Positions 3 to 23,398 of a DNA stretch of 32,000 nucleotides are shown here, piece after piece. Source of the DNA: Ktedonobacterales bacterium. GTDB lineage: Bacteria > Chloroflexota > Ktedonobacteria > Ktedonobacterales > JADMIN01. The notes below the pieces were generated by a model. It saw only the letters and a list, made by a program, of their open reading frames with translations, was not told the DNA's origin and did not search any database. Made by a program: the position numbers and the translations under genes. Every line of letters starts with the position of its first letter. Within the stretch, counting starts at the first letter, position 1. The stretch is taken from assembly GCA_030167145.1 (NCBI GenBank), contig CP126532.1:3180001-3212000 (forward strand), written 5' to 3'.

Positions 3-1400
3 TTCGGCGCGGGTGAATTGATTCTGCCGTTCGTGCTGCAATCCGCCGAGGTGATGAAGAAGTCCGTCGCCCACCTCGAACACTATCTCGAACGCACCGA
101 GGGCTACACCAAAGGCCGCGTCGTGCTGGCCACCGTCTTCGGCGACGTGCATGACATCGGCAAAAACCTCGTCAACACCATCCTCTCCAACAACGGCTAC
201 ACCGTCTACGACCTGGGCAAGCAGGTGCCGCTCAACACGATCATTGATAAAGCGCTTGAAGTCAACGCCGATGCCATTGGCCTCTCCGCCCTGCTGGTCA
301 GCACCTCCAAGCAGATGCCGCTCTGCGTGCAAGAACTGGACCGCCGCCAACTCGATATTCCGGTCATCGTCGGCGGCGCGGCGATCAATCGCGCCTATGG
401 TCGCCGCATTCTCTTCGTTGGCGAGAACAGCTCCGCGCATCCCTTCAGCCCCGGCGTCTACTATGCCCGCGACGCCTTCGAGGGCCTTGAATTGATGGAT
501 GCGCTGATGAATCCCGACCAGCGCCCCGCGCTCGTAGATCGTGTGCGCAGCGAAGCCCTCACCGCCCGCGAAGCCGAAGCGCGCCGCCAGGCAGCGAGTA
601 CCGCCACCTCTGCCATCCCGGCTGAGCGCCCGCAGGTTGCGCCTGCCCCCGCCGTGACGCCCCCGTTCTGGGGGCCGCGCCTGCTCGACCGCGTCGCCGT
701 CGAAGACGTAGCGCGCTGCCTCGATATGAACGCGCTCTATCGCGGACGCTGGGGCGGCGTTGCCCACGGCGACGAATACACCCGCCTCGTCAACGAACAA
801 TTCGCCCCGCGTCTTGAGCGGATGCTGCGCGAGGCGCGGCAGCGCCGCTGGCTGCATCCCCGCGCGGTCTACGGCTACTTCCCCACCCGCCCAGACGGCG
901 ACGTCCTGCTCGTGCTCGACCCCAACGACCACGCGCGCACCTTGGAGCGCTTCACCTTCCCGCGTCAAACCGACGGCGAACGTCTCTGTCTGGCCGACTA
1001 CTTCGCCACCCCCGATGGCGCGCCAACCGCCGTCGCCTTCCAGGTGGTGACGATGGGCGACCGCGCCTCCGAGGAAACCGCGAAGTTACAGGCGGCAGGC
1101 GACTACTCCGAAGCCTACTTCCTCCACGGCCTCAGCGTGCAAATGGCCGAAGCCATGGCCGATTACGTGAACGAGCGTGTGCGCGCCGAGCTAGGCTTCA
1201 CCGGCGAGCAGGGGCGGCGCTATAGCTGGGGCTACGCCGCTATACCAGAGCTAGCCGACCACGAGCGCGTCTTCCGTCTGCTTGGCGTCCCCGAAGCCAT
1301 CGGCGTCACCCTCACCGAGTCCTACCAGCTCGTGCCGGAGCAATCCACCGCTGCCATCATCGTGCCCCACCCTGGCGCGGTCTACTTCGCCGTCCGTTAG
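3..1400 (+). CDS. metH: Cobalamin-dependent methionine synthase, C-terminal part (B12-binding and AdoMet reactivation domains). The 5' end lies outside the window.
   Basis: The frame is open to the window edge (FGAGELILPFVLQSAEVMKK...). The B12-binding signature DxHxxG is present (GDVHDIGKNLV), followed by SxL (GLSALLVSTS) and GG (VIVGGAAI). The C-terminal activation-domain region is also typical (RYSWGYAAIPE, AIIVPHPGAVYF). Confidence 0.9.
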   Translation, partial: FGAGELILPFVLQSAEVMKKSVAHLEHYLERTEGYTKGRVVLATVFGDVHDIGKNLVNTILSNNGYTVYDLGKQVPLNTIIDKALEVNADAIGLSALLVSTSKQMPLCVQELDRRQLDIPVIVGGAAINRAYGRRILFVGENSSAHPFSPGVYYARDAFEGLELMDALMNPDQRPALVDRVRSEALTAREAEARRQAASTATSAIPAERPQVAPAPAVTPPFWGPRLLDRVAVEDVARCLDMNALYRGRWGGVAHGDEYTRLVNEQFAPRLERMLREARQRRWLHPRAVYGYFPTRPDGDVLLVLDPNDHARTLERFTFPRQTDGERLCLADYFATPDGAPTAVAFQVVTMGDRASEETAKLQAAGDYSEAYFLHGLSVQMAEAMADYVNERVRAELGFTGEQGRRYSWGYAAIPELADHERVFRLLGVPEAIGVTLTESYQLVPEQSTAAIIVPHPGAVYFAVR

Positions 1401-1420
1401 ATCGCATTCGACACGAAATA

Positions 1421-1445
1421 GCCCCCAACCGCAATGGTTGGGGGC
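1421..1445. terminator. GC-rich hairpin between the convergent metH and S53 peptidase genes, possibly a bidirectional terminator
   Basis: GCCCCCAACC-gcaat-GGTTGGGGGC forms a perfect 10-bp stem with a 5-nt loop. It lies 21 nt after the metH stop and about 40 nt after the peptidase stop. A T-rich tail is present only in the minus-strand reading (TATTTCG). Confidence 0.5.
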
Positions 1446-1483
1446 CGTAAGAATAGTAGCGCGTCTTCCGCACTACGGCTGAG

Positions 1484-3562
1484 CTACGGTTGGCTTGCCA
1501 TCGCCGGCACAAAGTTCGGCGCATTCGGCGAACCCACGCCGGTCACGTCGTCCCAGCCCGCGCCAGTCGCCAGCGAGCTATCCTGGTTGAAGGTGGGAGC
1601 GAAGAACCTGCCGCTATAGCGGCTGCCATAGTACAGCAGGAATGCACTGGCGTCACCGCTCACCGGATTGCCAACTCCCGTCGGCGGCGCGCTGACATCA
1701 TTGGTCGCGCCAGCGGGCAGCCCATAGAGGTACTGCGTCGCCAGCCCCGCCGGAGCCAGGTGGTTGTTCGCGCGCATCTGGTTGACCAGCGCCATGATGC
1801 CAGAGAAGAGCGGGCAGGCGAGGCTGGTGCCGCCATACGGCTCGATCTCTGGGCTGGTGTCGCCAACAGACTGATCGGTGATAAAGACGTTCATGCCTGT
1901 ATATGGATCTGCCAGCATCGAGACATCCGGCACCGCACGATGCGAGCCGACCACACCGAAGCCGCTGGCCGTCGCCCCGCTGATCGCGGCTTGCTGCCAG
2001 GGCTGCGCCGTAAAGTTGTAGCTCAGGCCACCGCCCGCGCCGCCGTCAAAGCCGTACACCAGCGGTGAATTGTAGTACGAGTTGCAGTTCTGCAATCCCG
2101 TCTGCTTGCTCACGGTATAGGCATAGCACGAATAGAGGCGGCTCAGGTTGGTGCCCCAGCCCGTCTCGAAGTTGTAGCTGTTGTCACCATTGAGGAAGAG
2201 ACTGGTGCCGCCAACCGCCGTGACCCACGGCGAGCTAGCGGGATAATCCACACTCTTCGCGCCACCGCACTGCGGATCGCTGGCTGGCGAAGTCGCTTCG
2301 TCACCGCAGTCGCCAGAAGAGAAGCTCACGCCGATGCCCTCAGCAGCGGCCTGCATGAAGATGCGCTCGTCGCGGCTGGCTTGGCCAGGATCCATCAGAT
2401 CCGCAGCGAGACCCCAGCTATTCGAGACGATGTCGGCATAGTGGTGAATCACCACCCAGTTGACCGCCTCGTCCAGGTCGGCATAGTTGTTCGGCGACGC
2501 CACCAGCACGATCTTCGCCCCCGGCGCCATCGCATGCACCGCCTCAACATCCAGCGTCACCTCAGCCTGCCAGCCCAGCGGATCCTGCGCGCGGCTTTCA
2601 GGATGATTCACCGTGCCCGGCGGCGACACGATCTGGAAGTTCTGGCCCTCCACCAACTTCGGCAGCCCATAGGCCGCTGAATAGGCGTTGGCGTCGGTCA
2701 GGATCGTCGAGCTGCCGTAGGCGTCCACAATCGCCACCGTCTGCCCCGTGCCGTCAATGCCCTGCGCGATCAGCTTATCTACGCCATAGGCTTTTTGCAG
2801 TTGGGTCGCGCCGTAGCCGCAGGGAACAAAGCCGGTGTAGGTCGGCGTGGAGGTCGTCTTGCCAGTTGTCTGGTCCACCACCTTCAGCGTCTTGCTCGTC
2901 GTCAAACCGCCGCACAGCACCTGCCAGATCACCGAGTTATTCGGGGCTGTGCCGTCGCCGCCGCCCTGTGCCGGGCGTTGAATGAACGGCGCATAGTCGC
3001 TGGAATTGTCCAGTCCAGTGATGTTGGCGATGTTGCCGCCTGCCGGGTCATTCACGCTCGGATCAGCAGCATTAGAGCGATAGGTCTGGTTGTCGTAGCT
3101 GTAGTTGTTAATCTGGACGTGGAACGCCTTTTCCGCCTGGTCCACCGTTCCAGACACCTTCACATAGAAGTTATTCTCAGCCGCCCCCAGCACCGTAAAG
3201 CCGTGCGCCGACAGGAAGTTCTCGACCGAATTCAACTCCTGCGACGTGGGCGAATAGTTCGCGTTGAATTGGCTCTGGCTCACGAACTGATGATAGCTCC
3301 CGCTGCCCGGCGTGTACATGTCGTGCAACTGCTGCTGGAGTTGCCCCTCGTTGTGCAGCCGCAGCCACACCGTCAGAGTCAGCGTCTCCGTAGCATCAGT
3401 CGCGCCCAGGTTCTGCGCCTTGCTGACCCAGCCGGGCGTGTTGCCGCTCATGGTGTAGGTGGTGGTCTGGCTGGCGTAGACCGTCACCCCTAGCACCGAG
3501 AGGGTGAGCGCAATGGCCAGGATTGCGCCGAGAATCGCGAACGTTCGTGTCTTTCTGGTCAT
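1484..3562 (-). CDS. Secreted S53-family (sedolisin/kumamolisin-type) serine-carboxyl peptidase with an N-terminal pro-domain
   Basis: 692 aa. It has an N-terminal hydrophobic anchor or signal (FAILGAILAIALTLSVLGV). A pro-kumamolisin-like activation segment is present (TLTVWLRLHNEGQLQQQL...YHQFVSQSQFNANYSPT...FLSAHGFTV). SSGDCGDE and the catalytic-serine motif GGTSLACPLFSGIMALV are also present. A GGAAGG SD lies 6 nt before the ATG. Confidence 0.9.
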   Translation of the reverse strand: MTRKTRTFAILGAILAIALTLSVLGVTVYASQTTTYTMSGNTPGWVSKAQNLGATDATETLTLTVWLRLHNEGQLQQQLHDMYTPGSGSYHQFVSQSQFNANYSPTSQELNSVENFLSAHGFTVLGAAENNFYVKVSGTVDQAEKAFHVQINNYSYDNQTYRSNAADPSVNDPAGGNIANITGLDNSSDYAPFIQRPAQGGGDGTAPNNSVIWQVLCGGLTTSKTLKVVDQTTGKTTSTPTYTGFVPCGYGATQLQKAYGVDKLIAQGIDGTGQTVAIVDAYGSSTILTDANAYSAAYGLPKLVEGQNFQIVSPPGTVNHPESRAQDPLGWQAEVTLDVEAVHAMAPGAKIVLVASPNNYADLDEAVNWVVIHHYADIVSNSWGLAADLMDPGQASRDERIFMQAAAEGIGVSFSSGDCGDEATSPASDPQCGGAKSVDYPASSPWVTAVGGTSLFLNGDNSYNFETGWGTNLSRLYSCYAYTVSKQTGLQNCNSYYNSPLVYGFDGGAGGGLSYNFTAQPWQQAAISGATASGFGVVGSHRAVPDVSMLADPYTGMNVFITDQSVGDTSPEIEPYGGTSLACPLFSGIMALVNQMRANNHLAPAGLATQYLYGLPAGATNDVSAPPTGVGNPVSGDASAFLLYYGSRYSGRFFAPTFNQDSSLATGAGWDDVTGVGSPNAPNFVPAMASQP

Positions 3563-5293: not shown

Positions 5294-6079
5294 TTAGCTA
5301 TGCTTCCAGGCGACGCTAAAACTTGTGCCGCCGCCACCGAGGCCCGACGGCTGCGCCTTCACCGTGCCGCCGGAGGTTTGCATCACGATCTCATCCGGGT
5401 TGGGATTCGCACTGATAGACTGGCCGTTGGCAGTGCAATTCGAGAAATTGACCGTGCCGAAGTTCGCCAGCGGCAGCACCCCGCCAGAGCCAGAGGGCGC
5501 TTCCGCGATCCATTCAGCCGAGCCGAGCTTGGCCTTCTTCGAGGTCTGCGTCGTCGTGAAGCTCCAACCCTGCGTCGCGTCGCTGATCGTCAAGGTGAAA
5601 TGGCCAGAGCCAGTGTTCTTGACCTCAGCCGTGATCGCGTCGCCTGGCTTCACTGGATTACTCAGGTTCACCGGGAATTTCGGATACATCTCGTACCAGG
5701 CATAATAGGTCGGTGTGCCGCTAGAGCAATCGGCGTCGGTGCCCGTCTGTTCGACGGTGTTGGTGGTATCGCCGTCAATGCCGACCCAGAAGGATGAATA
5801 CGCCGTCTGACCAGATGAGCAGGAGGCCGAAGGCTGTGTCCACGAGCCTTTCACATCCGTGAATGTTCCGCCTGTGTTGGCATAGCCCGACCAGTTTGTG
5901 CTGGTAGAGTTCTTGCCGTGGTGCAGATGCAGCATCATTGGCGCCGTATGCCGACCCGTTGCCGCATGCGCCTCCGCGCCGCGCGGCGCGCCAATACCCA
6001 ATACCATCGCCACCAGGAGCGCCCCCGCGATCAGGGGGATAGGAGAGAGGCAAAGGCCGACTTTGTACACCTTGCGCAT
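5294..6079 (-). CDS. Secreted G1-family (eqolisin / scytalidoglutamic-type) glutamic peptidase
   Basis: 261 aa with a signal-like N-terminus (LIAGALLVAMVLGIGAP). The G1 hallmarks are TNWSGYA, FWVGIDGDTTNTVEQTG (candidate catalytic Gln) and SAEWIAEAP (candidate catalytic Glu). A GGAGGAG SD lies 4 nt before the ATG. Confidence 0.85.
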   Translation of the reverse strand: MRKVYKVGLCLSPIPLIAGALLVAMVLGIGAPRGAEAHAATGRHTAPMMLHLHHGKNSTSTNWSGYANTGGTFTDVKGSWTQPSASCSSGQTAYSSFWVGIDGDTTNTVEQTGTDADCSSGTPTYYAWYEMYPKFPVNLSNPVKPGDAITAEVKNTGSGHFTLTISDATQGWSFTTTQTSKKAKLGSAEWIAEAPSGSGGVLPLANFGTVNFSNCTANGQSISANPNPDEIVMQTSGGTVKAQPSGLGGGGTSFSVAWKHS

Positions 6080-7019: not shown

Positions 7020-7295
7020 CCGACCCGACCAGAGCGACCATCAGTTCGTCGCGTAGTTGGGTCTGTTGGATCTGTTGGATCTGGTCGCGGTTGGCGAGGG
7101 AGTGATCGGGGATGGTGGCGAGTTCGGTGATGCGCAGGTCGGGTGGTGGCTTGCGGGTGTCGGGGGGATGACGGCGAACTCGCCGCGGCGCACGGCGGCG
7201 AACAGGTTCGTGGAGTAATCCTCGCGCACGCGGATCTCGACGGCTGGGTGGGCGCGGTGGAGTTGGCCGAGGGCGCCGCTGTACGCTGCGCGCCG
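7020..7295 (-). pseudogene. Remnant of a LysR-type regulator: a frameshifted substrate-binding-domain fragment with no HTH
   Basis: The minus-strand translation reads AAYSGALGQLHRAHPAVEIRVREDYSTNLFAAVRRGEFAVI, which fits the LysR pattern (f...yP.v.l.l.eg.s..l...l..GelDlai). It is preceded by an in-frame stop. After a C6 run (G6 at 7162-7167 on the plus strand), the sense continues only in another frame (PDLRITELATIPDHSLANRDQI...LRDELMVALVGS) and then dissolves. Confidence 0.45.
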
Positions 7296-7398
7296 CTACT
7301 TCGCGATGAGGTTGCCCCTCGCAGCGGACGATAAGGAAGCGGGCGATAAGGAAAGGAGGTTACCCACTCCTGCCCATTTACATTTTATAGCGCACAGG

Positions 7399-7434
7399 GG
7401 GGCTTGCGGCAAGCCCAGGGTCGTGTCATACAAT
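7399..7434 (+). promoter_or_regulatory. Palindromic operator-like element (RAE-like) followed by a -10-like hexamer, upstream of the rph homolog
   Basis: 7399-7417 reads GGGGCTTGCGGCAAGCCCA. Within it, 7400-7416 is a perfect 8-1-8 palindrome (GGGCTTGC-G-GCAAGCCC). TACAAT lies at 7429-7434, 12 nt after the palindrome. Confidence 0.55.
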
Positions 7435-7730
7435 CGCGGGCCGAGACCAGAAACCTACGGACATGGGAGTGGCAACGTGCGTGTGTCGTTGTCGCCGTAT
7501 GGGTCGCATGGGTATGTCGCCCCGATGGTGAGACTCGCGGGCACTCCAGGCACGCGGCGCGGCGATGCCGGCGCGCGTGCCGCCCAACTTCGCCGAGCTG
7601 CTGGCCCATGTGGGCGTGCCGCTGGTGCTGGTAGTGTCGGCCGGTCAGCCAGTGTGCCCGCTGATGACTGGGGCTGGGGTCCGGTGAGACACTGCGACGT
7701 TCTTTAGACAACGCACAAGGGAGGGAGCGG

Positions 7731-10340
7731 ATGGACAGTTACGCGTTGGGTTTCCAGGAGATTGACCAGACGCAGGTCACGGTCGTTGGCGGCAAGGGCG
7801 CTCACCTGGGGGAGCTTTCGCGGATCGAAGGCATCCGCGTGCCGGCTGGCTTTTGCATGACGACGAGCGCTTTCCAGCGGATCATGGCGGAAGCGCCGTC
7901 GATCAACGATTGGCTCGATCGGTTGTCGCGTCTGAAGCCGGACGACCGGGACGCGATCCGCGCGTTCAGCGCGGAGATCCGCCGGACCCTCGAAGAGATC
8001 GCCATCCCCGACGATCTGGCGGCCGCGATCACCCGCCCGCTCGCTCAGCTCGGTGAGCAAGCTGCCTACGCTGTCCGATCTAGTGCGACGGCGGAGGACT
8101 TGCCGACAGCCTCCTTCGCGGGCCAGCAGGACACGTACCTGAATGTCGTGGGGTCGGAGGCGATCCTCCAGCACGTCAGCCGGTGTTGGGCCTCGCTCTT
8201 CACTGAGCGAGCGGTGATATACCGCCTGCGGAACGGCTTGGACCAGCGGAAGGTCCAGATGGCCGTGGTCGTGCAGCGGATGGTCTTCCCGCACGCGTCC
8301 GGCATCCTTTTCACGGCTGACCCTGTCACAGGCAACCGGAAGGTCGCCTCCGTGGATGCCAGCTTCGGCCTCGGCGAGGCCCTGGTCTCCGGTCTAGTGA
8401 ACGCGGACGTCTACAAGGTGCGGGAGGGCCAAGTTATCTCCAAGACCATCGCCACAAAGAAGCTCGCTATCTACGCGGCGCAGGCAGGCGGTACACAGGA
8501 ACAAGTTATTGAGCCGGAGCGGCAGGAGCAGCCAGCGCTGACGGATGCGCAGGCCGTGCGGCTCGCGCAGTTGGGTCGGCGGATCGAAGCGCACTTTGGC
8601 AGTCCTCAGGACATTGAGTGGTGCCTGGTAGACGGTGACTTCCAGATCGTGCAGAGTCGGCCGATCACCACCCTGTTCCCCATTCCCGTGGTCGGCGACC
8701 GAGAGAGCCACGTCTACGTATCTGTCGGTCACCAGCAGATGATGACCGACGCCATGAAGCCCCTGGGGATCTCCCTGTGGCAACTGACAGCAGGTCGGCC
8801 TATGTATGAGGCCGGCGGGAGGCTGTTCGTCGACGTCGCCCGGGGTCTGGCTTCGCCAGCGAGCCGCGCAGGCCTCCTGGCGGTCCTGGGGAAAGGCGAT
8901 CCGCTGATCGGGGACGCGCTGCAGACCATCCTCGAACGCGGCGACTTCATCCGCTCGCTCCCGGACGAAAGGCCCGGCGTAGCGTCGGCTGGCGCACCGC
9001 CAGCCTCGATCGAGACGGGTCCGGCCATCGTCGCCGAACTGATCGGGCGCAATCAGGACTCCATCGCCGCCTTGAAGCGCCACATCCAGACGAAGTCCGG
9101 ATCGGCGCTGCTCGACTTCATCTTTGGGGATATCCAGGAGTTGAGACGAATCTTGTTCGATCCGCGAAGTCATCAGGTGTTCATGACAGCGATGGAGGCC
9201 ACCTGGTGGCTCAATGATCACCTGCGGGCGTGGCTGGGCGAGAAGAACGTGGCCGACACGCTCACACAGTCTGTCCCCAACAACGTCACGTCGGAGATGG
9301 GACTGGAGCTGCTGGACGTCGCAGATGTGATTCGCCCGCATCCGGACGTGGTGGCTTTTCTGCAGCGCGTCGAGGACGAGGGTTTCCCAGACGAAGGCTT
9401 CCTGGATGAGCTGCCCAGGCTCGCGGGCGGGCAGGAAGCGCGAGACGCCATCCAGGCCTGGCTCGACGAGTACGGCATGCGCTGCGTCGGCGAGATCGAC
9501 ATCACGAGGCCGCGTTGGAGCGAATGCCCCACCACACTCGTGCCTATGATCCTCAGCAACATCAAGAATTTCGAGCCGGGTGCCGCCAAGCGACGTTTCG
9601 AGCAAGGGCGGCAGGAGGCTTGGAAGAAAGAACAGGAGCTGCTGGAGCGCTTGCGGGTCTTGCCAGGTGGGGAGCAGAAGGCCGAGGAGGTCAAGCGGAT
9701 GATCGCCCAGGTCCGGACCTTCATCGGGTACCGCGAATATCCGAAGTACGGCATGGTCAGCCGCTACTTCGTCTACAAGCAGGCCTTACTGGAAGAAGCC
9801 GAGCGCCTCGTGCATGCCCACGTGCTTCGTGAGCAGGAAGACACCTTCTACCTCACGTTCCAAGAGTTCCACGATGTCGTGCGCACAAATCGGGTGGATG
9901 ACCAGCTCATCAGCCAGCGCAAGGACGCGTTCAGGTCATATCAAGCGCTCACGCCGCCTCGGGTGCTCACATCGGATGGCGAGGCCGTGGCCGGATCGTA
10001 CCGACGCGAGGATCTTCCTGCTGGCGTGCTGGTCGGCTTACCGGTTTCATCTGGGACCGTCGAGGGGCGGGCCCGCGTCATCCTCGACATGGCAGAGGCC
10101 GATCTCGAACCGGGCGACATCCTGGTCACAGCCTACACAGACCCCAGTTGGACGCCCCTGTTCGTCGCGATCAAGGGCCTGGTGACGGAAGTGGGGGGCC
10201 TGATGACCCATGGCGCGGTGATCGCACGGGAGTACGGCGTGGCGGCCGTCGTGGGGGTGGAGCATGCCACCCATCTGATCCAGGATGGGCAACGGATCCG
10301 CGTGCATGGGACGGATGGGTACGTCGAGATCCTGCCGTAG
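7731..10340 (+). CDS. rph: Rifampin phosphotransferase-like PEP-utilising enzyme (N-terminal ATP-grasp, central domain, C-terminal swivel phosphohistidine domain)
   Basis: 869 aa. A GGGAGGGAG SD lies just upstream. The N-terminus FQEIDQTQVTVVGGKGAHLGELSRIEGIRVPAGFCMTTSAF is PpsA/RPH-like. The C-terminus has PSWTPLFVAIKGLVTEVGGLMTHGAVIAREYGVAAVVG, which is the mobile His domain. The length and domain order match RPH rather than a true PEP synthase. Confidence 0.85.
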   Translation: MDSYALGFQEIDQTQVTVVGGKGAHLGELSRIEGIRVPAGFCMTTSAFQRIMAEAPSINDWLDRLSRLKPDDRDAIRAFSAEIRRTLEEIAIPDDLAAAITRPLAQLGEQAAYAVRSSATAEDLPTASFAGQQDTYLNVVGSEAILQHVSRCWASLFTERAVIYRLRNGLDQRKVQMAVVVQRMVFPHASGILFTADPVTGNRKVASVDASFGLGEALVSGLVNADVYKVREGQVISKTIATKKLAIYAAQAGGTQEQVIEPERQEQPALTDAQAVRLAQLGRRIEAHFGSPQDIEWCLVDGDFQIVQSRPITTLFPIPVVGDRESHVYVSVGHQQMMTDAMKPLGISLWQLTAGRPMYEAGGRLFVDVARGLASPASRAGLLAVLGKGDPLIGDALQTILERGDFIRSLPDERPGVASAGAPPASIETGPAIVAELIGRNQDSIAALKRHIQTKSGSALLDFIFGDIQELRRILFDPRSHQVFMTAMEATWWLNDHLRAWLGEKNVADTLTQSVPNNVTSEMGLELLDVADVIRPHPDVVAFLQRVEDEGFPDEGFLDELPRLAGGQEARDAIQAWLDEYGMRCVGEIDITRPRWSECPTTLVPMILSNIKNFEPGAAKRRFEQGRQEAWKKEQELLERLRVLPGGEQKAEEVKRMIAQVRTFIGYREYPKYGMVSRYFVYKQALLEEAERLVHAHVLREQEDTFYLTFQEFHDVVRTNRVDDQLISQRKDAFRSYQALTPPRVLTSDGEAVAGSYRREDLPAGVLVGLPVSSGTVEGRARVILDMAEADLEPGDILVTAYTDPSWTPLFVAIKGLVTEVGGLMTHGAVIAREYGVAAVVGVEHATHLIQDGQRIRVHGTDGYVEILP

Positions 10341-10659
10341 CGGGCCAGCCCAACTACCTGTCGGGCGTCTGGCGGATGCCCGGCGACTGCCGCGCAGAGG
10401 CTCTCTCAGCATGAGGGGTACGCCTCCTTCGTCTGGAGGCGCTGGTGAGATCGAAGAGGAGGACATCGCAGCGCGATCACACGCTCCAAAAAAACGGCTA
10501 TTCAACTGCCTGGGCCGCATGATATGCTGAGCAAAGCCATGCCCGCTGATTGCGCCAGTGCCGGAGTCAGCGCGCGTCAGATGGTACGAACATCTGGCGC
10601 TCGCGCACAGGTATAGCGCACGTGTAATACAACGAGTGGCGGATCACCGGCCACCCTCT

Positions 10660-13826: not shown

Positions 13827-14550
13827 CCCGCGCAGCATCACCGTGCTGGTCGTGGATGATGAACCGCGACTGGTAGACGTCGTGCGCATGAACCTGGAAG
13901 TCGAAGGCTATCGCGTCGTCGAGGCCGCTAACGGCTACCAGGCGCTGGACCGCCTCAAAGACGACCTGCCCGACCTCGTCATCCTCGACGTGATGATGCC
14001 CGAACTCGATGGCTTCGACACACTGCGCCGCATCCGCGAGGTCTCCAGCGTCCCCGTCATCATGCTCACCGTCCGCCAGGAAGAATCGGACCGCATTCGC
14101 GGCCTCGAAATCGGCGCCGACGACTATCTCACCAAAGCGCCCTTCAGCCCGCGCGAGCTGCAATCCCGCGTGCGCGCCCTGCTCCGCCGCACCTTCACCC
14201 CGTCCCCCGCCCGCAAAACCAGCATCGTCGTAGATAAAGACCTGACCATTGATTTCAACAAGGGCGAGGTCTGGGTGCGTGGCGAAAAAGTCGCCCTGCG
14301 TCCCACCGAATATAAGCTGCTCTACCATCTCGTCAACAACGCCGGACGACTCCTCACCCACGACACCCTGCTCTCCAAAGTCTGGGGACCAGAGTACCGC
14401 GACGAATCCCACTATCTGCGCCTCTACATCACCTACCTGCGCCAAAAGCTCGAACGCGACCCCGCGCACCCCAAATACATCCTCACCGAGCGCGGTCGTG
14501 GCTACCGCTTCCGCGAGCTAGAGCCAGCCGAAGCGCCCGTAGCGAATTGA
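13807..14550 (+). CDS. OmpR/KdpE-type response regulator (receiver plus winged helix)
   Basis: The ATG at 13807 overlaps the kinase stop by 20 nt. The receiver reads [10 protein letters not shown]...[13 protein letters not shown]...VIMLTV...[14 protein letters not shown]. The C-terminal [33 protein letters not shown] closely resembles KdpE. The upstream part of the track ORF (from 13534) is the kinase read in another frame. Confidence 0.9.
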
Positions 14551-14625
14551 CAACTTAGAACGCATGTACTATACTTGGTGTGCCAGTTACGATGCGCTCC
14601 CACCATCGAAAGGACCACCAGCCCC

Positions 14626-15024
14626 ATGTCTCTGCGCTACGCCTTCACCCGTCTGCTCGTGCGCGACTATGCCGCATGCTTCCGCTTCTATCGCGACACC
14701 CTTGGCTTCGCGCCCACCTTCGGCGACGAGGCCAGCGGCTACGCCGACTTCGCCACCGGCGATGTCTCCCTCGCGCTCTTTGACCGGCAAGACATGGCAA
14801 AGGCCATCGGCGCGGGCGCGAAACCCATAGATGCCGACGCGCAAGATCGCGTCGCCCTCATCTTGACCGTCGAGAACGTAGACCAGTCCTATGCAGACCT
14901 CCAGGCGAAGGGCGTCACCTTCATCAAAGCGCCAACCGACATGCCCGAATGGGGTGGCCGTGTCGCCCACTTCCGCGACCCCGACGGCACCCTAATCGAA
15001 CTCTTCTCATCCCTCCACGCCTAA
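14626..15024 (+). CDS. VOC-family (glyoxalase / bleomycin-resistance fold) protein
   Basis: 132 aa from the ATG at 14626. It has FTRLLVRDYAACFRFYRDTLGF and a C-terminal WGGRVAHFRDPDGTLIEL, which is typical of the fold. Confidence 0.8.
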   Translation: MSLRYAFTRLLVRDYAACFRFYRDTLGFAPTFGDEASGYADFATGDVSLALFDRQDMAKAIGAGAKPIDADAQDRVALILTVENVDQSYADLQAKGVTFIKAPTDMPEWGGRVAHFRDPDGTLIELFSSLHA

Positions 15025-15068
15025 CCCGCATCCCTGCTCGTGCGCCAGCCATGATGCACTGTTACGCT

Positions 15069-15091
15069 CCCCTTCCCTACGAGGGAAGGGG
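15069..15091. repeat. GGGAAGGGG-type hairpin element, possibly a terminator, downstream of the VOC gene
   Basis: CCCCTTCCC-tacga-GGGAAGGGG has a perfect 9-bp stem and is followed by CTGGGGGTTAGGT. A related hairpin occurs at 16079-16105. Confidence 0.5.
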
Positions 15092-15229
15092 CTGGGGGTT
15101 AGGTTCATGCCCGCGAACATCCCTCAGAAATCAGGGCCGCCGCTGTCCACATTCGCGTGTACACTGGGATGGTGATAGGCGGCGCGCTGGACCTGTGCCG
15201 CCCACCGAGAGCTAAGGAGCGCCAACACC

Positions 15230-16063
15230 ATGAGCAACGCAACCAACAGCGCATCTGGTTTCGCCGAAGTCAACGGCACGCAAATCTACTACGAAGTCGC
15301 GGGCGAAGGGCATCCGCTGGTGCTCATCCACGCGGGCATCGCCGACAGCCGCATGTGGGACGACCAGTTCAGCGTCTTCGCGCAACACTACCGCGTCCTG
15401 CGCTACGACCTGCGTGGCTACGGCAAATCCGCCTGCCCGCCTGGACCCTACGCGCTCCGCGACGACCTCCACGCCCTGCTCCAACACCTCAACATCGCCA
15501 AAGCGCACCTCATTGGCGTCTCGATGGGCGGCAGCCTCGCGGTTGATTTCACCCTCACCCACCCTGACATGGTCAGCGCGCTCATCACCGTCTGCGCGGG
15601 CCTCAGCGGCTTCGAGGCTCCTGACGACCCCGACACAACCGCCTACATCCAGCAGCTCATCGCAGCCGACAAAGCGGGCGACAAAGACCAACTTAACGAG
15701 CTTGAAGTCCATCTCTGGGTAGATGGCCTGCGTCGCACACCCGAACAAGTTAACCCCACCATCCGCGAGCGTGTACGCGAGATGAACGGCCTTGCCCTCT
15801 CGCGTGAAGCAGAAACAGACCAGGCGGAACCGCAACGGCTCGACCCACCCGCCGCCGGACGCCTGAGCGAGATTCACGCCCCCACGCTGGTCATCATCGG
15901 CGACGAAGACCTGCCCGGCGTGCGGGCCACCGCCGACAAGCTCGCCACCGACATCTCCGGCGCGCGGAAAGCCGTCATCCACAACGCCGCCCACGTCCCC
16001 AACATGGAGCGTCCCGACGCATTCAACCGCATCGTCCTCGACTTCCTCGCCTCCCTCGCCTGA
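15230..16063 (+). CDS. Alpha/beta-fold hydrolase
   Basis: An AAGGAG SD lies upstream. HPLVLIHAGIADSRMWD is the oxyanion region, and the nucleophile elbow is GVSMGG. The C-terminus has HNAAHVPNMERPDAFNRIVLDFL. Confidence 0.88.
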   Translation: MSNATNSASGFAEVNGTQIYYEVAGEGHPLVLIHAGIADSRMWDDQFSVFAQHYRVLRYDLRGYGKSACPPGPYALRDDLHALLQHLNIAKAHLIGVSMGGSLAVDFTLTHPDMVSALITVCAGLSGFEAPDDPDTTAYIQQLIAADKAGDKDQLNELEVHLWVDGLRRTPEQVNPTIRERVREMNGLALSREAETDQAEPQRLDPPAAGRLSEIHAPTLVIIGDEDLPGVRATADKLATDISGARKAVIHNAAHVPNMERPDAFNRIVLDFLASLA

Positions 16064-16078
16064 CCTTCCTTCCACTCT

Positions 16079-16111
16079 GCCCTCTTCCCCAGTCGGGAAG
16101 GGGGCATTTCT
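16079..16111 (+). terminator. Candidate intrinsic terminator after the hydrolase gene
   Basis: GCCCTCTTCCC-cagtc-GGGAAGGGGGC forms an 11-bp stem with one G-U pair and is followed by ATTTCT. It lies 16 nt after the stop. Confidence 0.5.
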
Positions 16112-16148
16112 ATGGTGAAACCATTGTCTGTCGGGTACACATACGAAG

Positions 16149-16177
16149 TTGACGGTACTAGACGATCTCTGTAAGAT
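16149..16177 (+). promoter_or_regulatory. Candidate sigma-70-type promoter for the small membrane protein gene
   Basis: The sequence is TTGACG-N17-TAAGAT. The predicted start site, near 16184, lies just before the GAGGAGG SD (16186-16192). Confidence 0.45.
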
Positions 16178-16198
16178 ACCATGGCGAGGAGGTATGGG

Positions 16199-16657
16199 AT
16201 GGAAGCTGAAACACGGCGTGGGCTTTTCATACTTGCGATATTTGCCGGGCCGAGTGTCATCCTGTTGACGACGATGATGACGGTACTGCAACAACCATTG
16301 TCCGCGATGAACCATTCCACCGCAATTGTCATTTCAAGCGTTGCTTTTGGTGTTGGCATGCTTGTAATGCTTGCCGCAGATCTCCGACAATCCTTCGCCT
16401 GGCGCGCAACTTTCAACGGTGGCGCTTTCGCATGCTTCGATGTGTTCTTATGGATGATGTCCTTGCATCGGTTTTGGATAGCCCTTGCCGTTGGGACCGT
16501 ATTGCTAGGGCTTGTCGCGGCTATCACGGCCCAATTTCCCTTGCGACGGCGCACCCCCTATCAAGTCCATCCTGATTCCAGCTCACCGTATCGAAGACCC
16601 TGTGCCGTCGAGGTTTCAGCGCCGCCATATCTCCTGACACCACTTGGCCCCATCTGA
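16199..16657 (+). CDS. Small integral membrane protein (about 4 TM), hypothetical
   Basis: GAGGAGG lies 6 nt before the ATG at 16199, which is in frame with the track ORF starting at 16181. The hydrophobic segments are LFILAIFAGPSVILLTTMM, AIVISSVAFGVGMLVMLAA, GAFACFDVFLWMM and IALAVGTVLLGLVAAI. The GC content is visibly lower than in neighbouring genes. Confidence 0.55.
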   Translation: MEAETRRGLFILAIFAGPSVILLTTMMTVLQQPLSAMNHSTAIVISSVAFGVGMLVMLAADLRQSFAWRATFNGGAFACFDVFLWMMSLHRFWIALAVGTVLLGLVAAITAQFPLRRRTPYQVHPDSSSPYRRPCAVEVSAPPYLLTPLGPI

Positions 16658-16804
16658 CCGCATCCGTCCTTGTGTCGTCCGCTCCTCTTGCCTTTCATTG
16701 CCCACCCTCGCATGCTACACTATCCCATGCGAGTCCCACCCGACCGCAAGGAGCGCCTCTTCTCATGAACCACCGGCCACTGGTCCGGCAGCCATTCTTG
16801 TCTG

Positions 16805-17390
16805 CCAGCACGAAAATCGGCAACTCCGGCAACTGCCACAACCCAAATTCGCGGCGAAAACGGCGAAAAATCTCCCCCCATGTCCCGCCATTTCCCGACA
16901 TCCACCCGCACACCACCGTACAAATCGGCAAAATCGGCAACTCCCATTGCGGCCATTTCGGCCACCCCGCGCGGTCCGTTCGCACGAGATCACCCGTGGC
17001 ATTCATGCTGGGAACCCGCTTTACCACCCATCCTCAACTGCACGCAAATCGGCCATTTCGGCCACTGCCTCTGCACCTACTGCATGCATACTCCAAGATG
17101 ACCCGCAGCATTCATGCCGGGAGCCTGCTCTACCACCATCTTGCCCTCGTGCGAACATCGGCAAAATCGGCAACTGCTCCAACACGCAATTGCGGCGAAA
17201 ACGGCGAAAATTATCCCGTCACTTCCAGCCATCTCCGGCCACATGCCCTCATCATCGCCTCAAAATCGGCCATTTCGGCCACTGCGAAAATCGGCAGAAC
17301 CGGCAACTGCCAGCACATGTATGTCGGCCACATCGGCCACTGCGACCTTCCCAGGCATTTATGCCCCCTCGCCCGTGCTCCGGCCATTTA
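16805..17390. repeat. Mosaic of short degenerate direct repeats and mini-hairpins (BIME/REP-like cluster) between convergent genes
   Basis: Several words recur. AAAATCGGCAACT(C/G)C occurs at about 16813, 16931, 17163 and 17287. (C)CATTTCGGCCAC occurs at about 16953, 17053 and 17270, with the variant CACATCGGCCAC at 17329. GCGGCGAAAACGGCGAAAA occurs at 16851 and 17192. A 43-nt pair is seen at 16988-17030 and 17097-17139 (GAT.ACCCG..GCATTCATGC.GGGA.C..GCT.TACCACC). Hairpins GGCATTTATGCC and CGGCCATTTATGGCCG lie at 17353-17395. Copies fall in different reading frames. Confidence 0.7.
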
Positions 17391-18338
17391 TGGCCGAGCG
17401 CGCAGCAGCGCATCCACCTCCGCACGTGTCGGCAGCGACGGCTCCGCGCCAAGTCTCGTCACCGCCAGCGCACCCGCCGCCCCCGCCCGCCGCAGCGCTT
17501 CCGCCATCTCCTCCCCGCGCGCCAGCTCCGCCGCCAGCGCCCCACAGAACGCATCGCCCGCCGCCGTCGCATCCACCTGCGTCACCGCGAACGGCGGCAG
17601 CGCCACCGCCTCTGCCTCTGGCCCCGCCAGCCACAGCGTCCCACGGCTCCCCAGCGTCACCACCACCGACCCGCAGCCCCGCGCCAGCAGCGCCCGCGCC
17701 GCCCGCTCAGCCCCCGCCATATCCGCCACCGCGATCCCCGTCAGCGCCTCCGCCTCGCGCTCATTCGGCAGCAACACATCCGCGCCGCCCACGATCTCCG
17801 CCAGCAGCGGCATCGCCGCATCCGGCGCGGGCGCGGGATTCAGCAGCACCCGCATTCCCCGCGCATGCGCCATCTCCATCGCCGCCCACACCGCCTCCGC
17901 GCCCACCTCGAACTGCGCCAGCAGCACCCGCGCGCCATCGAACGCCGCCTCAGCCGCCCGCACATCCTCGGCAGAAGTGCGCGCGTTCGCCCGTGGCGCC
18001 ACGATGATGCTATTCTGCCCATCTGGCTCGATCACCGGAAACGCCAGCCCCGTGCCCACCTCCGCATCTCGCGTCACCCAGCGCGTGTCAATGCCCTCAC
18101 GCGCCAGCGCCGCATCGAACGGCGGGCTGAACACATCATCGCCCAGCCGCCCGATCACCCGCACCTCCGCGCCCGCCCGCGCCGCCGCGATAGCCTGGTT
18201 ATTGCCCTTGCCACCCACGAACAGAGCGCAATCCGTGGCGATCAGCGATTCTCCCGCATACGGGCGTCGTGGCACGCGCACCACCAGATCGAGGATGAAA
18301 CTCGCCAACACCACCACCGCCCCCGCCGGTTCCGGCAT
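17388..18338 (-). CDS. rbsK: Ribokinase (PfkB family)
   Basis: The two PfkB/ribokinase signatures are GGKGNNQAIAAARAG and DATAAGDAFCGALAAELA. An AAGGAGG SD lies 6 nt before the ATG at 18338. The Arg/Lys-rich N-terminal extension of the track ORF (from 18404) is unlikely to be real. Confidence 0.85.
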   Translation of the reverse strand: MPEPAGAVVVLASFILDLVVRVPRRPYAGESLIATDCALFVGGKGNNQAIAAARAGAEVRVIGRLGDDVFSPPFDAALAREGIDTRWVTRDAEVGTGLAFPVIEPDGQNSIIVAPRANARTSAEDVRAAEAAFDGARVLLAQFEVGAEAVWAAMEMAHARGMRVLLNPAPAPDAAMPLLAEIVGGADVLLPNEREAEALTGIAVADMAGAERAARALLARGCGSVVVTLGSRGTLWLAGPEAEAVALPPFAVTQVDATAAGDAFCGALAAELARGEEMAEALRRAGAAGALAVTRLGAEPSLPTRAEVDALLRARP

Positions 18339-18615
18339 CGCGGGCCTCCTTTTCGTCTTGCGTCTGTTGTTCCGCATGCTAGCACGCGACATATTCGCGG
18401 TCAATCCTCAATTTTCCGGCGTTCCGAGCAACAAACCACTATCTGCGCGGCGTTTGACATGCGGGGCGCTCGGCGGTACACTACTCCCGAAGGTTGCGAG
18501 AGGATCCGGAGGCCGGGCGGGCGAAGATGCCCACCTATGGCGCAACCCGCTGCTGTGTACGCGCCGAGCCGAGCACCGTGCGCCCCCGGCAGCCATCGGA
18601 GCAGAGGATACATCC

Positions 18616-19260
18616 GTGCCAGATTTTCAGACAATCAATCGCGCGGCGCAAGAACATTTCGCCGCCAAACATGCCGCCCGCGAGCGCGCCCTGCCCAAGT
18701 CGCGCTCCGCCATTCGCCTCTGCGCGAATGCCATCCGTTCCGCGCATCGCGACGAATTCAACACCACCAATCAGTTGCTCACCGATGCCGGTCGGCTGCT
18801 GAGTGAGATGGCGGCGGACCTGCGCGAACATCAAGATATCTTCCATGCCGGCTTCGTCGCCGACGCCCAGAAAGAATACGCCGAAGCCGCGCTCACCTGT
18901 GCCCTCATCAAGCGCGAGACCCTCCCCGGACCCGACGACCTCGGCGTCGAATGGGCGCCCTATCTGAACGGCCTCGGCGAATCCATCGGTGAACTGCGCC
19001 GCTACATCCTCGACCGTATGCGCCTGGGCAAGATAGATGCCTGCGAGGTCCTGCTCGCGGATATGGACGACATGTTCTCCGTGCTCACCTCGCTGGATTA
19101 CCCGGATGCCATCACCGGCAACCTCCGGCGCACCGCCGACTCGGCCCGCGGCATCCTGGAGAAGACCCGCGGCGACTTCACCCTTGGCGCCACACAGGCC
19201 CGGCTCAACTCCGCACTGGAACGCATGCAAGAGCGGCTCGACCGCCTCGTTGATTTTTAA
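18616..19260 (+). CDS. Translin/TRAX-family protein
   Basis: The GTG at 18616 has GAGGA 7 nt upstream. The 214-aa all-helical product has FVADAQKEYAEAALT, YLNGLGESIGELRRYILD and YPDAITGNLRRTADSAR, which resemble the translin-family pattern as I remember it. This is the only believable part of the 862-aa track ORF. Confidence 0.65.
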   Translation: MPDFQTINRAAQEHFAAKHAARERALPKSRSAIRLCANAIRSAHRDEFNTTNQLLTDAGRLLSEMAADLREHQDIFHAGFVADAQKEYAEAALTCALIKRETLPGPDDLGVEWAPYLNGLGESIGELRRYILDRMRLGKIDACEVLLADMDDMFSVLTSLDYPDAITGNLRRTADSARGILEKTRGDFTLGATQARLNSALERMQERLDRLVDF

Positions 19261-19342
19261 GCGCGCATATACGTGAATCTCGTGGGACGCCCATATTCTT
19301 TCCCCGCGTCGTTGCTGAGCGGACGAAGGAGGACGAGAGCCA

Positions 19343-20353
19343 ATGAGCCAGCGCGTCCCATCTGAAGAGCGACCCCCCGCGCGGCCCGACCCCATCCAAC
19401 CGTCCACCGCGCGCATCGTAGACGCGGCCCCCGCGCCGTCGCACGGCTTGCTGCTCGCAACCTATCTCTGGCTCTGCCACCCTATACGCCTGCTCCTGGT
19501 GGTCGCGCCGGTCCTCCTCACGCTCGAACTGCTCTGGGCCAGTGGCCTGCGGCTGCTGCCGATCCCCGCCGCCTCCACACTGCTCGCTGCGGTCCTGGCG
19601 CTCGCGGGCGGCTCCCTGCTCGACGAATATCTCGCCTTCGAGCGCGCCGCCGCGCATGGGCGCACCAATGAACCAGGACTCAGCCATCTCCCTGGCGCCC
19701 GCATGGCCACCTCGCCGGTCTATACCCTGACCGTCCTGCGGCTGAGCATCAGCCTGCTGGCGCTGGGCGCGCTGGCAGGCATTCCCTCCGCGCTCAGTGG
19801 TGGTGTCTGGACCATCATCCTGGGTGTCGGCGCGCTGCTGCTGGCCTTCCTCTATTCCGCCACCAGCTACGCCTGGAAGCGCCTGCCCGCCAGCGCCGTC
19901 ATCGTCGCCCTCGCGCTTGGCCCCGGCCTCGTATTTGCCACCACCCTTGCCCAACATCAGCCTATCTCCTGGCCCATCCTCACCCTTGGCCTCGCCCTGG
20001 GCTGCGCCGCGCTCACCTGCGCCCAGGCGCACGTGCTCGCCTCCGCCGCTGCCACCACCACCGCCTCCAGGCGTGCCGGGCGCATCCTCTGCGCACTCGC
20101 CTTGGTGGGGGCATACGCTTTCGCCGTCATCCTCGCCAGCTTCTGGGGCATCTTCACCGGCGCTGTCGCCGCATTCCTCTCGCTCCCCGCCGCCGTGCTG
20201 GCCCTCACCGGCATCATGCGAGCGCAGTCGCCAATCGTCCGCGCGCTCGCCCTCCGCCAGATGACCCGCGCCTACCTGCTCTACGCGCTCTGGCTCTTCA
20301 CCGGCATCCTCGCCGCATACCTCATCATCCGCTTTGCTCACGCGCTGGCCTAG
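19343..20353 (+). CDS. Polytopic integral membrane protein (8-9 TM), function unknown
   Basis: An AAGGAGG SD lies 10 nt upstream. Hydrophobic helices run throughout. There is a loose resemblance to UbiA/MenA topology (LLLAFLYSATSYAWKRLP...ALGPG), but I could not find the Asp-rich motifs. Confidence 0.7.
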   Translation: MSQRVPSEERPPARPDPIQPSTARIVDAAPAPSHGLLLATYLWLCHPIRLLLVVAPVLLTLELLWASGLRLLPIPAASTLLAAVLALAGGSLLDEYLAFERAAAHGRTNEPGLSHLPGARMATSPVYTLTVLRLSISLLALGALAGIPSALSGGVWTIILGVGALLLAFLYSATSYAWKRLPASAVIVALALGPGLVFATTLAQHQPISWPILTLGLALGCAALTCAQAHVLASAAATTTASRRAGRILCALALVGAYAFAVILASFWGIFTGAVAAFLSLPAAVLALTGIMRAQSPIVRALALRQMTRAYLLYALWLFTGILAAYLIIRFAHALA

Positions 20354-20417
20354 ACTCGTCAGCGCCGCCCGTCGCCTCCGCCCCGCGCAGGGAGAGAGGC
20401 GACGCGCGCATACGCCG

Positions 20418-21986: not shown

Positions 21987-22159
21987 GCGGTTCTTCCCTT
22001 CTTCGCAATCTCTGGACTCCGCGGCGCCGATGCCGCGCTTTAGAGCATAGCATGCGCCTGTAGCATACGTCAGGAAGAAAACCGCGACACTTTCGACTAT
22101 TTTACCCGTACATCAGGGCTATCAGGCTAGGCACGTTCAGGAAGCCATGCGTTATACTT

Positions 22160-22935: not shown

Positions 22936-23136
22936 GCGCGCTGCCAGACGCAACCTCCTCTTGTGATCGACACCTTCAAGACTATCCTTCCGCATCGCTT
23001 CCCGCGCAGGGCAACAGCACTCGATTCGCCACTGCTCGTTGTAGCTTTCCCCTCCTAGAGCGGGTCGCAGACAGGCAAAACAAACAGAGCCTCCCCCGAC
23101 TCGTAATGCTTACCACCGTCTTAGTAAACTATGAGT

Positions 23137-23146
23137 CGTTCCCACT
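23137..23146 (+). repeat. Copy 1 of the recurring 10-mer CGTTCCCACT
   Basis: This is an exact 10-mer in the same orientation as the copies at 23389 and 23939. Confidence 0.6.
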
Positions 23147-23388
23147 TTGTGGCTCTCATGCTGAGCAGTGACTGACACAAGTAACGACACGCAAGTGCTC
23201 AATAAAATGTCACAAAACGAGTTGGCCTATATTTACACAGTGCCACCGAGATTCAGGTTTCTCCCAGGCATCCATATCCCACGAATTCGATAGGTTATTC
23301 AAACACTTGTCACTCATGCGCTCGCGAGAGCTACACCGACTCATCTTTGCATTTTACGTCAACGTTAGATTATTTCACTTCACCCTTA

Positions 23389-23398
23389 CGTTCCCACT
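23389..23398 (+). repeat. Copy 2 of the recurring 10-mer CGTTCCCACT
   Basis: This is an exact 10-mer. ATTTCACT lies just upstream, and the same 8-mer lies just downstream of copy 3. Confidence 0.6.

Follow-up and report, generated by a model that had tools for sequence, protein, structure and literature searches.

The window, a stretch of 32,000 nucleotides from a Ktedonobacterales metagenome-assembled genome (MAG), contains a gene for a rifamycin-inactivating phosphotransferase (rph) and, upstream of it, a rifamycin-associated element (RAE), a palindrome described from the promoters of actinomycetes. The RAE lies 313 nt from rph. A pseudogene stub of a rifamycin glycosyltransferase gene (rgt) occupies the space between them, so rph does not stand directly behind the promoter. 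Among actinomycetes, no other feature predicts rifamycin-resistance genes as well as the RAE does, and rph and helR were discovered through it.

The host lies outside the described range of the element, the phylum Actinobacteria. A TrmD gene is found 850 nt downstream of rph, and all labelled relatives of its product (79-90% identity) are from Ktedonobacterales, which places the host in the Chloroflexota. The original prediction, made from the letters of the window, had suspected that the host was not an actinobacterium, and this proved right. Because the cassette lies on a MAG contig of 5,069,607 bp, there is no binning ambiguity.

The gene at the RAE and the element itself

From its size and three-domain order, the gene downstream had been taken for a rifampin phosphotransferase. 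Its product scores 1586 bits against the NCBIfam equivalog NF041857.1 (rifamycin-inactivating phosphotransferase; cutoff 999) and contains, in order, the domains PPDK_N (residues 18-314), Rph_4th and PEP-utilizers (793-863). It aligns end to end with the Listeria monocytogenes RPH 5FBS (1129 bits) and is colinear with it over residues 2-868, which agrees with that assignment. The swivel-domain His motif GGLMTHGAVIAREYG (MTHGAV) is identical to that of Listeria RPH in the alignment. We take the His of this motif to be the phospho-carrier, as in the Listeria RPH structures 5FBS and 5HV1. Judged by family score, domain order and alignment, the open reading frame is a bona fide Rph.

Four 19-mers used for RAE searching in a 2025 preprint served as the RAE consensus: GGGGCTTGCGGCAAGGCCC, GGGCCTTGCGGCAAGGCCC, GGGGCTTGCGGCAAGCCCC and GGGCCTTGCGGCAAGCCCC (bioRxiv 10.1101/2025.08.06.668190). 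The window element reads GGGGCTTGCGGCAAGCCCA and is identical to the third of them, GGGGCTTGCGGCAAGCCCC, at 18 of 19 positions; the sole mismatch is A for C at position 19. Positions 7400-7416 form a perfect 8-1-8 palindrome. The sequence, the palindrome and the 18/19 match given in the original prediction all held when re-read and aligned with the published element. With membership defined as a 19-bp inverted repeat of the form GGG(G/C)CTTGCGGCAAG(G/C)CCC, the window element follows the pattern apart from position 19. When GGGGCTTGCGGCAAGCCCC was searched with up to 3 mismatches, the 32-kb window gave a single match, on the plus strand with 1 mismatch, against a chance expectation of 0.05 per window. 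Perfect palindromes with 8-bp arms number 7 in the window versus 3.5 +/- 2.1 in simulations. The size of the palindrome alone is thus unremarkable, and its significance is carried by the specific sequence and the flanks (nhmmer E=5.4e-23).

To place the element among other genomes, an 18-mer core, GGGSCTTGCGGCAAGSCC, was scanned over 185,579 species (one genome per species), which gave at least 120 loci. The first substantial downstream gene of each oriented match was clustered, and the module statistics given below were drawn from the matches listed. Among those matches, the downstream gene encodes HelR at least 34 times, Rox at least 28, Rph at least 17 (plus the window) and an Rgt-like protein at least 3 times; Arr is also present. 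The clusters were named by NCBIfam: HelR by NF041254 (1273 bits), rifampin monooxygenase by NF033145 (814 bits) and Arr by NF033144. The Rgt-like cluster reaches 683 bits against NF000354 (an intact RAE-linked protein, L093), under the cutoff of 800, so that "Rgt-like" is the accurate term. Since the 18-mer stands upstream of rifamycin-resistance genes, the pattern is the RAE described by the Wright and Ghosh laboratories. Surette et al. searched for it in the 500 bp upstream of genes (bioRxiv 10.1101/2021.05.10.443488). In the window it is on the same strand as the rgt stub and 59 nt upstream of it. On these sequence characters the window element is a genuine RAE.

Positions 4 and 16 divide the elements into types. 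G/G is the commonest, being found in 58 of 99 actinobacterial loci (canonical orientation), and has no dyad symmetry there; A at position 16 is frequent in metagenomic rph relatives. The window RAE is of the rarer G/C type, which is perfectly symmetric and is also found in uncultured Actinomycetota, Chloroflexi and Myxococcota. Its RNA fold is stable (-11.1 kcal/mol, z=-2.2). A strict RNA-hairpin requirement is nevertheless unlikely, because positions 4 and 16 are unpaired in the 58 G/G modules.

The RAE module and the rgt stub

Column statistics over the 99 actinobacterial loci, with 45 nt on either side of the RAE, delimit a conserved unit of about 115 bp that far exceeds the 19 bp of the palindrome. 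In order, the module comprises a hairpin (GGCAAGGAG-loop-CTCCTTGCC), CCACTCTCAAC, TATAGCGCAC, 3 nt, the RAE, 11 nt, CAGAAT or CACAAT, and CGCCGGCCGAAGCCAGAACCTGCGGAAA. Its counterpart in the window is AGGAGGTTACCCACTCCTGCCCATTTACATTTTATAGCGCACAGG, the RAE and GGGTCGTGTCATACAATCGCGGGCCGAGACCAGAAACCTACGGAC. The original prediction of a 19-bp element stands in this respect, but the far larger conserved unit and the rgt stub in the leader had been overlooked.

nhmmer profiles were trained on 98 actinobacterial modules, an Actinomycetota MAG locus (L080) being set aside with the non-actinobacterial loci. The full-module profile matches the window at 7351-7465 (E=5.4e-23, 75.5 bits). With the RAE removed, the upstream-flank profile still matches (E=5e-8), as does the downstream-flank profile at 7419-7460 (E=0.002). 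The palindrome could in principle be a chance GC-rich one, a generic repeat or a terminator unrelated to rifamycin. Perfect 8-bp-arm palindromes are common in the window, and genes of unrelated bacteria contain the bare 18-mer by chance (L018, L019, L031, L042, L051, L065, L076 and L084). These chance matches, however, score only 12-18 bits against the module profile. Because the flanks alone match profiles trained on actinobacteria and chance 18-mers score low, the similarity reflects homology and not a look-alike. Together with the single match in the window, its place upstream of Rph and the rgt stub and the family-typical 59-nt spacing, this refutes a chance origin, to which we assign a vanishingly small probability.

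A sense hexamer NANNNT is found exactly 11 nt downstream of the RAE in 98 of 98 actinobacterial modules (CAGAAT in 55, CACAAT in 23). In the window TACAAT begins 12 nt past the end of the RAE, as the original prediction had read it, leaving the same 11 nt between. At this family-fixed distance the palindrome would overlap the -35 region of the promoter, a placement that had also been predicted. It agrees with the literature on actinomycetes, where induction by rifamycins depends on the RAE in cis and the element lies over the -35 of the gene-proximal sigma-A/B promoter, promoter 2 (PMC10719064). Transcription is predicted to start at about 7440-7444. A sigma-70 scan of the window did not flag this promoter. 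The scan rule asks for a spacing of 16-18 nt, and the promoter was missed because 19 nt separate TACAAT from the TTGCGG within the RAE. No stable RNA fold was found in the 5' untranslated region (UTR; z=+0.95), and Rfam and tRNA scans of the window gave no matches.

Behind the promoter, a GTG at 7477 opens VRVSLSPYGSHGYVAPMVRLAG. It lies 59 nt past the RAE; in intact RAE-rgt loci the distance is 59-60 nt. A second frame, 7544-7675, encodes LQARGAAMPARVPPNFAELLAHVGVPLVLV. With the RAE-linked Rgt-like protein of L044 as query, tblastn aligned residues 1-21 and 24-66 colinearly in two frames, with a frameshift near 7540-7544, and blastn gave 71-79% identity between the stub and the 5' regions of rgt in L044, L093, L115 and L028. 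The stub is still open as a 76-codon frame that ends in TAG (7705-7707), 23 nt before the rph start. An intact Rgt, a GT1 enzyme of about 400-420 aa, was rejected for this interval, as only residues 1 to about 66 are recognisable and these are frameshifted. By alignment and spacing, then, the interval is a frameshifted rgt stub.

The same layout of RAE, rgt stub and rph is seen in Streptomyces and an Actinomycetota MAG (L085, L113, L074, L005, L094 and L015), where the stub, GTGCGTGTGTTGTTGTCGACGTATGGGGGACGCGGTGACGTCGAACC, encodes MRVLLSTYGGRGDVEP with varied internal deletions. Because the same stub stands behind the RAE in Streptomyces rph loci, the cassette appears to have moved as a unit. 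The stub also precedes helR (L011, L029, L103) and rox (L028, and L063 in an Acidobacteriota MAG), in hosts that include Streptomyces and Nocardia. On the metagenome contig Ga0136632_10003973 (L128, 1185-2000), downstream of the RAE come an 83-aa in-frame rgt stub that matches Glyco_transf_28, an N-terminal rox stub (MTEHAVVIAGGGPTGLMLAGELALAGVDVAIVER...) and rph. Here three rifamycin-resistance genes have left serial remnants behind one promoter. A rox stub was also observed just upstream of rph in L127. Judged by these stubs, the RAE promoter and the first rgt codons were evidently reused as successive resistance genes landed behind them.

The proximal rph leader shows 88-96% blastn identity to L125, L126, L162, L132, L122 and L123, and it is conserved even in relatives without an RAE. 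At the other end, blastn similarity to L124, L123 and L068 begins at about 7265-7276, and the segment down to 7353 is common to other Ktedonobacterales rph loci despite their different neighbouring genes. Overlapping this left end, a LysR-substrate-domain-like remnant, GALGQLHRAHPAVEIRVREDYSTNLFAAVRRGEFAVI, lies on the minus strand at about 7170-7290 (LysR_substrate, E=2.8e-4, 20.8 bits, gathering cutoff 28). Being partly common to the Ktedonobacterales rph loci, it may belong to the transferred cassette. The label is a sub-threshold Pfam match only, and the window remnant does not resemble the intact LysR encoded next to rph in Myxococcus (L205). Downstream, the homology of the cassette stops about 15 nt past the rph stop codon (about 10354).

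Table 1. Features of the RAE-rph cassette in the window
Feature	Position	Strand	Evidence
Left end of shared cassette, GCCGAGGGCGCC...CTTCGCGATGAGGTTG...CAGCGGACGATAAGGAA	7265-7353	.	blastn and six-locus alignment
Terminator-like hairpin AGGAGTGGGTAACCTCCT (7371->7354), then tail TTCCTTATCG	7344-7371	-	scan match; part of RAE module
Conserved TATA box: TATAGCGCAC on plus strand (7386-7395), TAAAAT on minus strand (7387->7382)	7382-7395	.	
RAE	7399-7417	.	18/19 match to published 19-mer
TACAAT, predicted -10 hexamer of sense RAE-overlapping promoter	7429-7434	+	fixed 11-nt distance from RAE
Predicted conserved initial transcribed region and 5' UTR, CGCGGGCCGAGACCAGAAACCTACGGAC	7435-7476	+	downstream-flank profile, consensus
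Shine-Dalgarno GGGAG of former rgt gene	7465-7469	+	
rgt pseudogene stub	7477-7707	+	tblastn, blastn, spacing
Proximal rph leader with ribosome-binding site AAGGGAGGGAG (7717-7727)	7676-7730	+	blastn
rph, rifamycin-inactivating phosphotransferase, 869 aa	7731-10340	+	NCBIfam equivalog, domains, alignment

Probable transfer beyond Actinobacteria and conservation in Ktedonobacterales

The module is not limited to this host. Seven sampled non-actinobacterial loci, none of them used in profile training, contain the full module (E=1e-10 to 4e-17). Rox is encoded downstream in Marilutibacter maris KCTC 42381, an isolate of the Gammaproteobacteria (L006), in three Myxococcota MAGs (L033, L077 and L098) and in a Chloroflexia MAG (L053). 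A Chloroflexi MAG (L097) has rph downstream, and a Terriglobales MAG of the Acidobacteriota (L063) has an rgt stub and then rox. The published accounts consulted place the RAE "within the Actinobacteria phylum" and rest on searches in Actinomycetota only, and none of the RAE-associated HelD-like gene clusters came from Firmicutes genomes. A literature search on Ktedonobacteria together with rifamycins returned nothing relevant. The taxonomic extension of the RAE beyond Actinobacteria and the enlarged anatomy of its module bear on the question of how it senses rifamycins.

Rph proteins labelled Ktedonobacterales are 84-87% identical to that of the window, and the closest relatives overall reach 89-90%. 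Similar identities are found in Rubrobacteraceae, Coriobacteriia, other Chloroflexota and a Myxococcus isolate. In a simple neighbour-joining tree, built with no bootstrap, 13 Ktedonobacterales Rphs form one clade nested in a grade of actinobacterial sequences. This topology is consistent with a single, old transfer from an actinobacterial donor and vertical inheritance within the order since then.

Seven rph contexts of labelled or near-identical proteins were compared (L122, L123, L124, L205, L206, L207 and L208). The RAE is perfect in L123, L206 and L208 and ends in ...GCCCT in L207; at the rph locus of L122 and of the Myxococcus isolate (L205) no RAE was found. L123, L124, L206, L207 and L208 match the actinobacterial module profile with E=2e-19 to 7e-24. 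The gene neighbourhoods of these five RAE-bearing loci are all different, and no shared regulator gene is present near them. An RAE-like 19-mer was found within 700 nt in 31 of the 72 metagenomic rph relatives that had sufficient upstream sequence. In several of the closest relatives the module is replaced, with the last 55 nt before rph kept.

Some of these contexts show further features. In L206, a Ktedonobacterales MAG, the RAE-rph cassette adjoins an IS21-type transposase/IstB pair and a phage-type integrase (1-2185). In L162, which is metagenomic and has no RAE, rph directly follows a tRNA gene and a terminator (about 1700-1900). The two contexts hint at island-like mobility. L163 contains two oppositely oriented RAE modules about 285 nt apart, at about 1378-1546 (minus) and 1831-1932 (plus); one points towards rph, the other to the left, where it has an rgt-like start.

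To examine selection on the element, the window and its five relatives were anchored on the RAE, and the invariant positions of each segment were compared by a binomial test with the 4-fold degenerate sites of the adjoining rph, where 136 of 339 (40%) are invariant. The RAE 19-mer has 16 invariant positions of 19 (P=1e-4) and the sense -10 hexamer has 5 of 6 (P=0.04). The surrounding segments are near or below neutral: 3/11 in the 11-nt spacer (P=0.88), 8/30 in the 30 nt after the -10 (P=0.96), 11/25 in the 25 nt upstream (P=0.42) and 1/20 at -45 to -26 (P=1.0, below neutral). Whole-module identity among the loci, 0.65-0.83, is not above the 4-fold-site identity of 0.66-0.78, and only the 19-mer and the -10 stand out. 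The rgt stub shows piecemeal deletion, and spacer, UTR and stub evolve about neutrally. This pattern of substitution speaks for a role of the palindrome in Ktedonobacterales over and above that of a -35 box, short of a proof of inducibility.

We therefore consider it probable that the region from about 7265 to 10354 is a horizontally acquired cassette, made up of an upstream remnant, the RAE module (7351-7465), the rgt stub and rph, in which the RAE promoter drives an inducible rph. That a cassette had been transferred together with its regulation was one of two options in the original prediction, and it is now favoured by the shared stub, the module in relatives and the nested Rph clade. Several observations weigh against this conclusion. 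The palindrome of L124 is degraded (GGGGCTTGCGGCTAGCCCT), and the RAE is lost in several close relatives (L122, L125, L126, L132 and L162), so the element is dispensable in some lineages. Position 19 is A in the window versus C in 97 of 99 actinobacterial modules. The conservation test covers six related sequences, and the 313-nt leader could contain undetected signals.

Some of the same facts would also suit a relic, that is, a module carried along from the actinobacterial donor that is now an ordinary constitutive or weak promoter, with a palindrome that senses nothing. The described RAE system is actinobacterial, several close relatives without the RAE keep rph and the proximal leader, and pseudogene debris is found throughout the cassette; besides the broken palindrome of L124, position 19 is relaxed in the Ktedonobacterales lineage (C, C, C, T, T, A). 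However, the 19-mer is conserved far above silent sites in six loci whose Rphs are only 85-89% identical, whereas the adjoining spacer and UTR drift neutrally, and a plain -35 needs no 16 invariant positions. The Rph clade also looks old and vertically inherited, so that there was time for decay, yet none is seen. We regard the relic as improbable.

Upstream of the cassette, the window encodes, near each other, a sedolisin/kumamolisin-type peptidase (Pro-kuma_activ and Peptidase_S8; 1484-3562, minus) and a Peptidase_A4 of the scytalidoglutamic type (5294-6079, minus); the pairing of these two acid-peptidase families is unusual. GC skew is -0.16 to -0.32 over about 8 kb (14000-22000), a region in which the long open reading frames 15212-16315, 16672-19260 and 19343-20353 have no Pfam match. 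Local GC content falls to 50% at 23001-24000.

Possible regulation and comparison with known systems

In the mechanism we favour, RNA polymerase with a housekeeping sigma factor would use TACAAT as the -10, with the RAE over the -35 region. Transcription would start near 7441 and would read through the decayed rgt stub into rph, because a terminator scan found no plus-strand terminator between the promoter and rph. Translation of rph would begin from the strong site AAGGGAGGGAG. Exposure to rifamycin would raise initiation in an RAE-dependent manner, presumably also in the Ktedonobacterales host. Rph would then move phosphate from ATP via the swivel-domain His to the C21 hydroxyl of the antibiotic and so inactivate it, according to the chemistry in the literature.

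One candidate for the sensor is a DNA-binding dimer that would recognise the palindrome and make up for the intrinsic weakness of the promoter. An activator-dependent promoter is suggested by the weak -35 (TTGCGG) and the 19-nt spacer, and the near-total conservation of all 19 positions looks like protein recognition. For this reason we lean to such a factor, giving it slightly less than an even chance. In January 2026 the RAE was viewed as read by "possibly an unknown transcription factor", with no RAE-binding protein reported (PMC12802891), a fact that would suit a sensor with no factor at all.

On the minus strand of the window module, TAAAAT lies 11 nt from the RAE edge, as the mirror image of the sense -10. 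A minus-strand TANNNT is present at -12 to -17, exactly 11 nt from the palindrome edge, in 97 of 98 actinobacterial modules (TACGTT, TAAGTT and others) and is kept in 6 of 6 Ktedonobacterales loci. The TATA-box columns have the highest information outside the RAE. The plus-strand reading, TATAGC, has a conserved C in place of the T that a -10 requires; the minus-strand hexamer agrees better with the actinobacterial -10 pattern, in which T1, A2 and T6 are conserved and the middle is variable. The hairpin begins 7-8 nt beyond the minus-strand hexamer. As a hairpin with a T-run it is terminator-like in 49 of 105 modules when read on the minus strand, and in 5 of 105 when read on the plus strand. 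RNAalifold gives an 8-bp stem with compensatory changes in 7 of 8 pairs, and on the minus strand there are 46 G-U versus 24 A-C. These parts point to a second promoter that runs divergently, has the RAE as a -35 in common with the sense promoter and meets a terminator at once.

On that basis the RAE might be the overlapping -35 of two back-to-back promoters, with RNA polymerase itself sensing rifamycin by competition or interference. The sense promoter would be TTGCGG-19 nt-TACAAT; the transcript of the other, TTGCCG-19 nt-TAAAAT, would begin at about 7373-7375 and stop at the hairpin and T-tail (7371-7344). The mirrored hexamer and the covarying hairpin directly downstream of it fit this model, as do the occurrence of the module in five phyla without a linked regulator gene and the regulator-free two-promoter precedents of Bacillus subtilis helD/pps (PMC12802891) and Mycobacterium smegmatis rpoBC, whose tandem promoters are described in Zhu 2018, as cited in PMC10719064. 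Induction, however, is not derivable from simple competition, since a rifamycin-blocked polymerase at the mirror promoter would leave the sense promoter covered. G1-G3 and C17-C19, mere spacer in such a model, are almost totally conserved, as if a protein recognised them specifically. The review PMC10719064 describes two sense-oriented promoters, and no start on the minus strand has been reported. The geometry is also divergent, unlike that of the convergent Bacillus promoters. Factor-independent sensing is thus somewhat unlikely in our judgement.

As a tentative and fairly unlikely extension, the RAE module may be a self-contained rifamycin sensor. The second promoter would make a decoy RNA of about 30-35 nt, consisting of the terminator hairpin only, and the balance would shift with rifamycin-bound polymerase. 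If true, this would account both for the spread of the module into at least four other phyla with no accompanying regulator and for the lack of any report of an RAE-binding protein in more than ten years.

Whichever sensor operates, a complete module beyond actinobacteria would widen the reservoir of inducible rifamycin resistance. It also gives a comparative handle on the missing sensor, because a trans-acting factor must exist in all RAE hosts, or none exists. The module of about 115 bp is now defined with its mirror -10 box and minus-strand terminator. The recurrent rgt stub before rph, rox and helR shows one inducible promoter reused by successive resistance genes.

Compared with the actinobacterial RAE (bioRxiv 10.1101/2021.05.10.443488; PMC10719064), the window has the same palindrome at 18 of 19 positions, a -10 at 11 nt, the hairpin, TATAGCGCAC and the 5' UTR, and, as in actinobacterial RAE-rph loci, an intervening rgt stub with rph downstream. 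It differs in its Chloroflexota host, in the C at position 16 that makes the palindrome perfect (G in 86 of 99), in the A at position 19 and in a -10 that reads TACAAT rather than CAGAAT. Few rgt stubs in the rph loci examined are as long as its 76 codons (83 aa in L128).

In the RAE-controlled helR and arr of Mycobacterium abscessus and M. smegmatis (Hurst-Hess et al., bioRxiv 10.1101/2021.05.10.443476; PMC10719064), the palindrome likewise lies over the -35 of the gene-proximal promoter, and the mycobacterial loci L023, L052 and L110 share the TATA box and the -10 spacing with the window. In contrast to the window, the downstream genes are different there, the modules are without the Streptomyces-type hairpin sequence, and two sense promoters have been mapped, whereas the window promoter is a predicted one.

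The B. subtilis helD/pps sensor (Sudzinova et al. 2026, PMC12802891) governs both a rifampicin phosphotransferase-type gene (pps) and the gene of a polymerase-protecting protein. With its two promoters and no dedicated regulator, it would be a functional analogy to the mirror-promoter model. It shows no sequence similarity to the window and no palindrome, and its promoters are convergent and 45-100 bp apart. A dual convergent sensor of the B. subtilis type was rejected for the window, where the candidate promoters are divergent with a shared -35 region, and the helD/pps authors state that RAE genes are regulated differently (PMC12802891). Finally, the RPH of L. monocytogenes (PDB 5FBS, 5HV1) resembles the window Rph in its full-length alignment, domain order and catalytic His motif. 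It comes from a different phylum, and the published account confines the RAE to Actinobacteria.

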